Shown piece by piece: positions 44,841 through 45,799 of a stretch of 64,000 bases of DNA. The number at the start of each line of letters is the position of its first letter. Position 1 is the first letter of the stretch. This DNA comes from Thermodesulfobacteriota bacterium. GTDB lineage: Bacteria; Desulfobacterota; BSN033; UBA1163. Made by a program: the position numbers and the translations under genes. Location: assembly GCA_030017685.1 (NCBI GenBank), contig JASEHH010000007.1, positions 1,824 through 65,823 of the forward strand, in the 5' to 3' direction. Under the pieces are notes generated by a model. It made no database searches and was not told the origin of the DNA. It saw only the letters and a list, made by a program, of their open reading frames with translations.

Positions 44841-45799
44841 ATGGAGCAGAAACTTGCATATTATGAGATTAGGGATCAAATCGCTATTGTCACCATCGAT
44901 CATCCTCCCATGAATGCCTTGGATGCGGCCACGAAAGAGGCCATTGTCGATGTATTCAAGGAGCTTGATGACCGGAGACAAGAAATCAGAGCAGTCATAT
45001 TACACGGGGCAGGAGAGAAAGCGTTTGCCGCGGGGGCTGATATCAAGACATTTTTGGAATTAAAACCCGGCACGGCCAAGAGACGTATTTCCCGTACTCA
45101 TCAAATTTATTCCATGGTCAGAGCCGTCCAAATTAGCTCGAATTCTTATGACTACCCCTTGAAATTATTACCTTTTTGGACAAGTTTTGGCTGTTTTGAA
45201 AATCAGGTTTCCTTTTTCTTTTTTTATGTATCCATTATGCTGTCCAAAATAGGCCGTTTTTAAAAACCTAATTTGGACAAGAGTGTTCCATGGTAGAAAA
45301 TTTTGAGTGGCCTGTGATCGCTGCGATCCATGGTTTTTGTTTAGGTGGGGGTCTGGAACTGGCACTCTGTTGCGATATCCGTTACGTGGAAGAGACTGCC
45401 AAATTAGGTTTTCCTGAAGTCAATCTATCCGTTTTTCCGGGAAACGGAGGGATATGGCGCTCTATGTATCATATCCCTCTGGGGAAATTGAAGGAATTGG
45501 TTTACAGCGGCGAGATGATCGATGCGATGGAGGCATTCAGGCTCGGTTTGGTGGAAAAGGTTGTTCCACCGGGGCAGGTGATGGTCGCTGCCATGGAGCG
45601 TGCCGCCAAGATTATGGAGAAAGGTCCTTTGGCCGTGGCAGCGGCTAAGAAAGTGATCAATCGGGGCAGAGACCTCTCACTTCAACATGGACTGGAACTT
45701 GAGTCTGAACTCTGGGCCAATCTAACAGCCACAGAAGATATGAAAGAGGGCGCCCGGGCCTTTATCGAGAAGAGAAAACCAGAATATAGAAATCGATAA
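44841..45799 (+). pseudogene. enoyl-CoA hydratase/isomerase (crotonase) gene interrupted by a 167-bp MITE
   Basis: The two ORFs (44841..45263 and 45290..45799) together encode one crotonase-fold protein. The fold appears when 45119-45294 is removed: ...[32 protein letters not shown].... Confidence 0.7.
45119..45285. mobile_element. 167-bp MITE (ends CAGAGCCGTCCAAATTAG / CTAATTTGGACAAGAGTG) with 9-bp target-site duplication TTCCATGGT
   Basis: Direct repeats TTCCATGGT sit at 45110-45118 and 45286-45294. Imperfect terminal inverted repeats with an 11-bp perfect core GTCCAAATTAG. There is no ORF of useful size inside. Confidence 0.7.

Follow-up and report, generated by a model that had tools for sequence, protein, structure and literature searches.

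We describe here a gene for an enoyl-CoA hydratase (crotonase) and the short mobile element that separates its two halves, both located in a 64,000-nucleotide stretch (the window) of contig JASEHH010000007.1 from the Thermodesulfobacteriota bacterium assembly GCA_030017685.1. We conclude, with a probability of about 0.93, that a MITE (miniature inverted-repeat transposable element) with IS4-family ends inserted into this gene and broke it. A first-pass annotation made from the sequence alone had proposed a 167-bp MITE with a 9-bp target-site duplication and no transposase, which splits the gene and whose removal (45119-45294) restores a continuous crotonase with the GADIK-to-PVIAA motif spacing of canonical hydratases. 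Each of these points was borne out, and the element proved to be homologous to a multicopy family with members of 51 to 277 bp, each with its own perfect 9-bp duplication.

Insertion into the crotonase gene

The 5' fragment of the crotonase gene (44841-45263 of the window, plus strand) is a 140-amino-acid (aa) open reading frame (ORF) in which 93 native codons are followed by 47 element-encoded codons and then by a stop in the element. The 3' fragment (45290-45799, plus strand) is a 169-aa ORF that covers native residues 92 to 260, and its frame is still open. Excision of 45119-45294, in any of ten equivalent registers, yields a single 260-codon ORF that joins both fragments. The restored protein aligns with the Pfam profile ECH_1 (PF00378; 4.8e-60), residues 10 to 259 falling on profile positions 2 to 250 of 251, and it shows 98% identity to the intact 260-aa orthologs P0001 to P0003, with 100% coverage and no gaps. 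Nearly all of its best 120 homologs are 260 aa long. A ten-sequence ortholog alignment likewise contains no gaps; residues ...QIYSMV|ENF... are conserved across the junction, and the break falls within the conserved core, with the oxyanion segment GAGADIK on one side of it and the PVIAAIHG strand on the other.

With 176 bp added, a length not divisible by 3, the reading frame is shifted and the protein is truncated after residue 93. The native frame is lost after Val93, and a stop codon lies inside the element (45261-45263). For the same reasons, and because the closest orthologs (98% identical) lack the insert, we rejected the possibility that the extra sequence is an in-frame insertion domain. 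Severed within its conserved core, a crotonase is not likely to function, and we infer that enzyme activity has probably been lost at this copy of the gene.

The 9-bp sequence TTCCATGGT occurs at 45110-45118 and at 45286-45294 and nowhere else in the window, and this perfect duplication directly abuts the CA...TG termini of the element, a 167-bp non-autonomous MITE (45119-45285). The right copy of the duplication holds the in-frame ATG (45290) of native Met92. The element has a G+C content of 35%, versus 47% for the window. It begins with CAGAGCCGTCCAAATTAG (45119-45136, plus strand) and ends with CTAATTTGGACAAGAGTG, so that its right terminus (45268-45285), read as the reverse complement on the minus strand, is CACTCTTGTCCAAATTAG. 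The two 18-bp termini match at 13 of 18 positions, and both contain a perfect 11-bp core, GTCCAAATTAG. The element has no ORF of its own, the ORFs within it being read-through from the host gene only, and tblastn with three transposases of the parent family described below detected no transposase in the element, in the window, or in sibling loci.

Taken alone, neither the 9-bp repeat nor the 11-bp core is significant. The window contains 147 pairs of exact 9-mer direct repeats spaced 100 to 400 bp apart, and the core, with up to 1 mismatch allowed, has 3 matches in the window versus 1.5 expected, a count that 15 of 100 shuffles reach as well. The feature is significant because the duplication abuts the inverted termini exactly, because excision restores a gapless protein of ortholog length, and because relatives have empty sites.

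A single copy of TTCCATGGT, corresponding to the left copy in the window, marks an empty site in eleven related contigs (L001 to L010 and L165), and none is filled. In the ten contigs L001 to L010, which encode P0002 (named in one source from "Deltaproteobacteria bacterium CG_4_8_14_3_um_filter_45_9"), the sequence is uninterrupted at the homologous position. The eleventh, L165, encodes P0001 as an intact crotonase and is collinear with window positions 44661-49659, with ~98.5% nucleotide identity over 4.8 kb. Its gene order is exactly that of the window, down to the unusual downstream arrangement, in which a 74- to 77-codon remnant of one dehydrogenase gene and a truncated second one precede an intact third. 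Since L165 has an empty site yet carries the dehydrogenase lesions, the insertion should be younger than the ~1.5% divergence between the two and younger than those lesions. The perfect duplication, the open frames of both gene halves, and the empty allele at ~98.5% identity all speak for recency, and these comparisons support an insertion that is recent relative to strain divergence, on a relative scale and not as an absolute date. The two checks suggested in the first-pass annotation, for empty sites in relatives and for orthologs that carry the 167 bp in frame, thus gave empty sites in all eleven contigs and orthologs without the insert.

Four changes in the crotonase gene are specific to the window, two of them synonymous and the others G36V and D77G; position 77 is D in all nine other aligned orthologs. 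We considered whether selection was relaxed after inactivation, and four changes are too few to conclude this. As a separate observation, the four substitutions (I35 synonymous, G36V, D77G, and T86 synonymous; window 44945-45098) are all confined to the 278 bp on the upstream side of the insertion, with none in the 505 bp on its downstream side. Ahead of the ATG at 45290, at ~6 nt, stands the weakly Shine-Dalgarno-like AAGAG contributed by the element terminus, and this arrangement might in principle allow the 169-aa C-terminal fragment to be translated.

The parent family and its MITEs

A degenerate pattern for both termini was scanned over a species-representative genome collection, in which at least 120 genome stretches matched, compared with ~17 expected by chance. 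The matches listed exclude the window's own contig. Most of them are metagenome-assembled genomes (MAGs) of Acidobacteriota, and the others come from Dehalococcoidia, Chloroflexi, Nitrospirota, Planctomycetota, Hydrogenedentota, Binatia, Gammaproteobacteria, Syntrophaceae, and other Thermodesulfobacteriota. Among the matches listed, inverted termini are paired in 15 elements of 1355 to 1488 bp and in 16 elements of 143 to 605 bp, each with a perfect 9-bp duplication. The full-length elements contain one ORF of 386 to 413 aa without a frameshift, which scores 256 to 267 bits (cutoff 115) against NCBIfam NF033592, "IS4 family transposase," and matches Pfam DUF4372 and DDE_Tnp_1 (77 to 91 bits for DDE_Tnp_1). 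The Y-(2)-R-(3)-E-(6)-K (YREK) signature, which defines the IS4 family (PMC2266710), is present in 9/9 correctly picked ORFs, e.g., YKDRWQIELFFKALK. Direct repeats are 9 bp throughout, within the IS4-family criterion of ~8 to 13 bp, versus 4 to 6 bp in IS701, ISH3, and IS1634.

In this family of insertion sequences (ISs), the end at which the transposase starts (IRL, the transposase-proximal inverted repeat) reads CACTCTTGTCCAAATTAG(G/C)TTT, the transposase beginning ~80 to 100 bp inside it, and the end after the stop codon (IRR, the transposase-distal inverted repeat) reads CA(C/G)(T/A)GCTGTCCAAATTAG. The right terminus of the window element equals the family IRL at 22/22 nt (L011, L031, and others), and this 22-nt sequence, CACTCTTGTCCAAATTAGGTTT, is identical in 14 genome loci among the matches listed, including the full-length IS copies L011, L031, L088, L018, and L056. 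The left terminus corresponds to the IRR. It differs by 1 mismatch in 18 from CAGAGCTGTCCAAATTAG, which is the IRR of many short elements and of the 1485- to 1488-bp IS copies L091 and L050; its agreement with these two copies is 18/20 nt, and it is identical to the left ends of the siblings L148, L160, and L162. As each window end matches a different family end, the imperfection of the terminal inverted repeats (TIRs) represents an IRL/IRR asymmetry inherited from the parent and not decay.

Both window ends have CA at positions 1 and 2 and T at position 9 (CACTCTTGT and CAGAGCCGT). The IS4Sa signature consists of CA------T ends, a length of 1150 to 1750 bp, and direct repeats of 8 to 10 bp (De Palmenaer et al. 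2008, PMC2266710), and the full-length elements resemble IS4Sa in their single-ORF DDE transposase with YREK, their CA------T ends, their size of 1355 to 1488 bp, and their 9-bp repeats. In contrast, the window element is non-autonomous and has only ~20 nt per terminus in common with the full-length elements. The parent type is IS4 family and, judged by ends, size, and repeats, IS4Sa-like. The first-pass annotation had pointed in the right direction with an IS4-like parent, in that the full-length elements sharing these ends generate 9-bp duplications and code for transposases of the IS4 family; both other copies and parent-type ISs exist in the genome and metagenome collections. Its description of imperfect 18-bp TIRs also stands, with the nuance that these are distinct parental ends. 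A parent IS within the window was considered and rejected, because the core motif occurs there only inside the element and the tblastn searches were empty. The transposase family is very abundant in metagenomes, where 8000 of 8000 scored candidates passed an E value of ≤0.001 and the best matches lie mostly on contigs of 1.3 to 2 kb, as is typical for repeats.

Closer homologs of the window element form a sub-family of MITEs. A 275-bp homolog flanked by the duplication ATATCATTT is present in a deltaproteobacterial MAG (L109), and the sub-family signature (a subterminal hairpin plus the IRL) was found on 32 metagenome contigs, so that the count stands at 32 metagenome loci plus L109, with one copy in the 64-kb window. 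Perfect 9-bp duplications flank 17 of the copies, each at a different target; 12 of these copies measure 274 to 277 bp, and the others measure 169, 168, 158, 51, and 51 bp. The remaining loci either lack a perfect duplication but are also of MITE size (163 to 277 bp) or are truncated at the end of a contig, and no autonomous element with the hairpin signature was found among the 32 metagenome loci. The window copy is 72 to 85% identical to 16 siblings, L141 being the closest, and its two termini are both conserved among the siblings. Targets of the sub-family are 71% A+T, with A favored at position 1 and T at position 9, and a long open frame is interrupted at only ~2 to 4 of 18 sub-family empty sites.

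In the alignment, the canonical element contains an IRR-like direct repeat in three copies (TGCTGTCCAAAATA) as well as a single internal motif that is IRL-like. The latter is present in the window element as TTTTGGACAAG (45174-45184, minus strand), in which TTTGGACAAG is identical to 45272-45281, and is kept in all full-size siblings. At the internal IRR-like repeat CATTATGCTGTCCAAAATAG (45233-45252, plus strand), family repeats 2 and 3 are fused; this repeat forms a hairpin with the right terminus (13 nt, 92% complementary). The ~108 bp between repeats 2 and 3 are gone from the window copy as well as from L141 and L149, which makes the window element an internally deleted derivative of the ~275-bp family, and this deletion arose independently in two sequence sub-clades. 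In L155, the segment between repeats 1 and 2 is absent, and in the 51-bp copies all sequence between repeats 1 and 3 is missing.

We also examined whether the element carries signals of its own. A structured RNA or riboswitch-like element was rejected, since Rfam gave no match at E ≤ 1 in 44800-45600 and the DNA fold of the element is no more stable than that of shuffles (z = -1.45). Outward promoters or terminators in the element were represented only by consensus-level matches, at the expected background rate.

Several further observations concern the family as a whole. The 22-nt CACTCTTGTCCAAATTAGGTTT is identical in elements of Dehalococcoidia, Acidobacteriota, Nitrospirota, and Hydrogenedentota (L011, L031, L045, L048, L061, L088, L103, L104, L115, and others), which implies either that the site bound by the transposase is under strong constraint or that this IS was recently transferred between phyla. 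In Acidobacteriaceae MAGs (L013 to L130), many independent full-length and short copies occupy nearly the same target, GCTGA(G/A)A(G/A)T, with ACGGCTGAGAGTAGC-like flanks (e.g., L021 1744-2063, L081 5217-5732, and L091 1148-2632); either target choice is highly specific there, or the elements have repeatedly entered some other dispersed repeat. Specificity of this sort was not seen in the sub-family of the window element. In L033 (335-610), from Syntrophaceae bacterium UBA4059, a lineage close to that of the window, the IRL is followed by only the first ~57 transposase codons, and the locus is either a truncated IS or an intermediate toward a MITE. The 51-bp "minimal" elements (L137 1348-1398 and L143 1341-1391 on the reverse strand) hold little beyond IRR and IRL between perfect 9-bp duplications and either transposed at that size or were deleted in situ between internal repeats. 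Finally, L135 and L157 are further 167-bp copies of the same deletion class, ~84% identical to the window element, with nonmatching 9-bp flanks, and may be products of recombination between copies.

The terminus sequences were not found mentioned in the published literature searched, and no copies of the element were found on sequenced plasmids. The nearest named IS in annotated plasmids, ISAbe18 (Acinetobacter, IS4 family), is only ~38% identical. ISAbe18 and an unnamed IS4 element on the Pseudodesulfovibrio profundus plasmid paDPRO have the same transposase architecture as the parent family, and their termini, CACTGCTGTCCC and CATTGCTGTCCGG, have CAnTGyTGTCC in common with CACTGCTGTCCAAATTAG; they differ in that amino acid identity is 38 to 43% and the termini diverge after ~11 nt. 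Tentatively, and at somewhat less than even odds, the elements described here constitute an undescribed IS4Sa-like IS/MITE clade whose 22-nt termini are conserved across at least eight labeled phyla/classes. We hold with the same reserve that this clade includes modular MITEs with three IRR-like repeats, defined deletion derivatives (275 to 167-169, 158, and 51 bp), and 9-bp duplications.

Two described MITEs invite comparison. Chunjie of Geobacter uraniireducens Rf4 (Chen et al. 2008, as described in PMC3184786 and PMC10969869) is A+T rich, has size variants of 178 to 235 bp and 9-bp repeats, and lies inside an operon, reportedly without disturbing it; its RNA fold is reported as ~-98 to -130 kcal/mol for 178 to 235 nt. 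Going by these descriptions of Chunjie, the window element resembles it in deltaproteobacterial host, A+T richness, size range, 9-bp repeats, and operon location. It differs in that the reading frame is broken and in that the fold of this family (-31.2 kcal/mol for the 167-bp window copy and -54 to -76 for 275-nt siblings) is about half as stable per nucleotide. MITEAba12 and its candidate parent ISAba12 (Acinetobacter, PMC6382973) are similar in that the MITE was found by gene disruption (there of hns), has 9-bp duplications and no transposase, and resembles candidate parent ISs only in the TIRs, two slightly different TIRs matching the parent IRL and IRR. MITEAba12 differs in belonging to another IS family, in its termini (GGCTTTGTTGCACAAA), in its length (113 bp), and in that its mobilization was observed experimentally.

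Mechanism and alternative explanations

In the explanation that we favor, the element has no gene and is made up of the two ends by which a transposase recognizes an IS4-family (IS4Sa-like) IS, together with additional internal copies of these ends. An IS4-type DDE transposase encoded by a full-length copy, either at another genomic location or on a replicon that was present only transiently, would have acted in trans, excising the element by cut-and-paste and placing it at TTCCATGGT, in codons 91 to 93 of the crotonase gene, where the two strands would have been nicked with a 9-bp stagger. Both the mobilizing transposase and the chemistry are taken by analogy from what is known of the IS4 family (PMC2266710). 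Repair of the stagger would then have created the 9-bp duplication. Before or after insertion, the ~275-bp progenitor would have lost ~108 bp by recombination or slippage between two internal 17- to 19-bp direct repeats. The expected product is a frameshifted, truncated enzyme, and this copy of the beta-oxidation hydratase would be knocked out.

Four points weigh against this interpretation. First, the closest sibling is only 85% identical, and no near-identical source or master copy was found. The description of the insertion as "very recent" in the first-pass annotation consequently holds in the relative sense given above and is not matched by a near-identical source copy. Second, the similarity between the MITE and full-length ISs is confined to the terminal ~20 to 23 nt, so that the MITE is not demonstrably an internal-deletion product of any IS seen. 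Third, a search of the 64-kb window revealed no autonomous partner. Fourth, the target TTCCATGGT (44% G+C and mid-gene) is atypical for the sub-family.

It is very unlikely that the insertion is anything more than damage, whether as a reversible on/off switch or by giving rise to a working crotonase made in two pieces with the help of the in-frame ATG in the duplicated target. Function would be kept if the N-terminal piece (93 residues plus the 47-aa tail) and the 169-aa C-terminal piece reassembled into an active enzyme. In keeping with this, both halves are open without extra stops or frameshifts, an ATG (45290) stands behind AAGAG, and the window contains no substitute paralog. However, the break lies inside the conserved core, between GAGADIK and PVIAAIHG, no such split crotonases occur among the 120 best homologs, and intact halves are equally expected of a young insertion; the window lineage has, moreover, acquired D77G. 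We regard reassembly as highly improbable.

The prospects of a switch, in which precise excision via the 9-bp repeats toggles beta-oxidation in the population, are just as slim. Perfect 9-bp repeats permit precise excision in principle, and the site is polymorphic among near-identical populations, but there is no evidence of repeated gain and loss, 11/11 related contigs being empty, and a single recent insertion explains the polymorphism more simply. In addition, most siblings occupy sites that no long open frame spans, a pattern that points to a selfish element and not to a regulator.

An assembly artifact, with a misassembled repeat, a minority variant, or a chimera standing in for any cell with a disrupted crotonase, might be suspected from the metagenome-type lineage, the mosaic identity to relatives, and the frequent location of family repeats at contig ends. 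Assemblers do not, however, make a precise 9-bp duplication around a complete and correctly oriented IRR and IRL, and the structure obeys the rule of 17 plus 31 independent insertions. The unusual neighborhood of acyl-CoA dehydrogenase (acd) remnants is independently reproduced in L165, so the surrounding contig is not chimeric. We give an artifact hardly any credence; the insertion is likely polymorphic in the population, which is compatible with a MITE insertion. Next to no weight attaches to mobilization by a different IS family with 9-bp duplications (IS5/ISAba12-type, IS1, IS256, or IS481). Duplications of 9 bp are not unique to IS4 and are also made by MITEAba12 and ISAba12, but every full-length element with these exact termini encodes an NF033592 protein with YREK, no other transposase type lies between such ends among the matches listed, and the termini fit IS4Sa CA------T and not ISAba12 GGCTTTGTTGCA.

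Operon context and significance

The crotonase gene (crt) sits in a beta-oxidation cluster that comprises hbd, crt, a thiolase gene, and acyl-CoA dehydrogenase genes, followed by phosphotransacylase-like and kinase genes. Upstream, the 3-hydroxyacyl-CoA dehydrogenase gene hbd (43953-44840, plus strand; Pfam 3HCDH_N and 3HCDH) is intact. Downstream, the thiolase gene (45811-47055, plus strand; Pfam Thiolase_N and Thiolase_C) is also intact, with the same arrangement in L001 and L165, and is exposed to any polar effect of the insertion. On the question of a substitute enzyme, which had been raised in the first-pass annotation, no crotonase paralog was detectable within the 64-kb window; in relatives, two additional ECH genes lie close to the cluster (L001 8125-8904 and 15466-16245).

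Further downstream, an acyl-CoA dehydrogenase gene is reduced to a 74-codon N-terminal remnant (47125-47346), and a second one (47369-48217) is homologous only to residue 246 and lacks the C-terminal domain. Both degenerate genes are intact in L001 to L010 (380 and 385 aa). The lesions recur in L165, which shows that they are real and predate the MITE insertion, and the beta-oxidation cluster may be decaying.

Identity between the window and L001 is mosaic, with ~99% over most of 44.0 to 47.05 kb and ~80% in 44400-44800 and 46900-47050, and synteny with L001 ends at 44002 and 48097. This pattern suggests that related populations have exchanged DNA by homologous recombination; it has no link to the insertion point. 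A recombination breakpoint at the insertion itself was considered, as the identity of the two flanks to L001 is 90.9% versus 97.6%, and was rejected when this difference was traced to the blocks at 44.4 to 44.8 and 46.9 to 47.05 kb.

The insertion is an ordinary kind of mutation and leaves the understanding of how MITEs or IS4 elements work unchanged; the repeat-driven deletion series and the cross-phylum conservation of the 22-nt terminus are details rather than surprises. For annotation, gene callers will report two crotonase fragments here, and metabolic reconstructions should treat this copy as a pseudogene. The family can be masked or annotated by the signature CA(G/C)(A/T)(C/G)(T/C)(T/C)GTCCAAATTAG, a 9-bp duplication, and an IS4Sa-like transposase, and repeats bearing this signature fragment metagenome assemblies in several phyla. 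The insertion is usable as a strain marker. It provides a clean natural case of a MITE that knocks out a metabolic gene in an uncultured, syntroph-like groundwater deltaproteobacterium, with the intact allele in near-identical populations, and it indicates that IS4-type transposition is active now, or was recently, in the lineage of the window.

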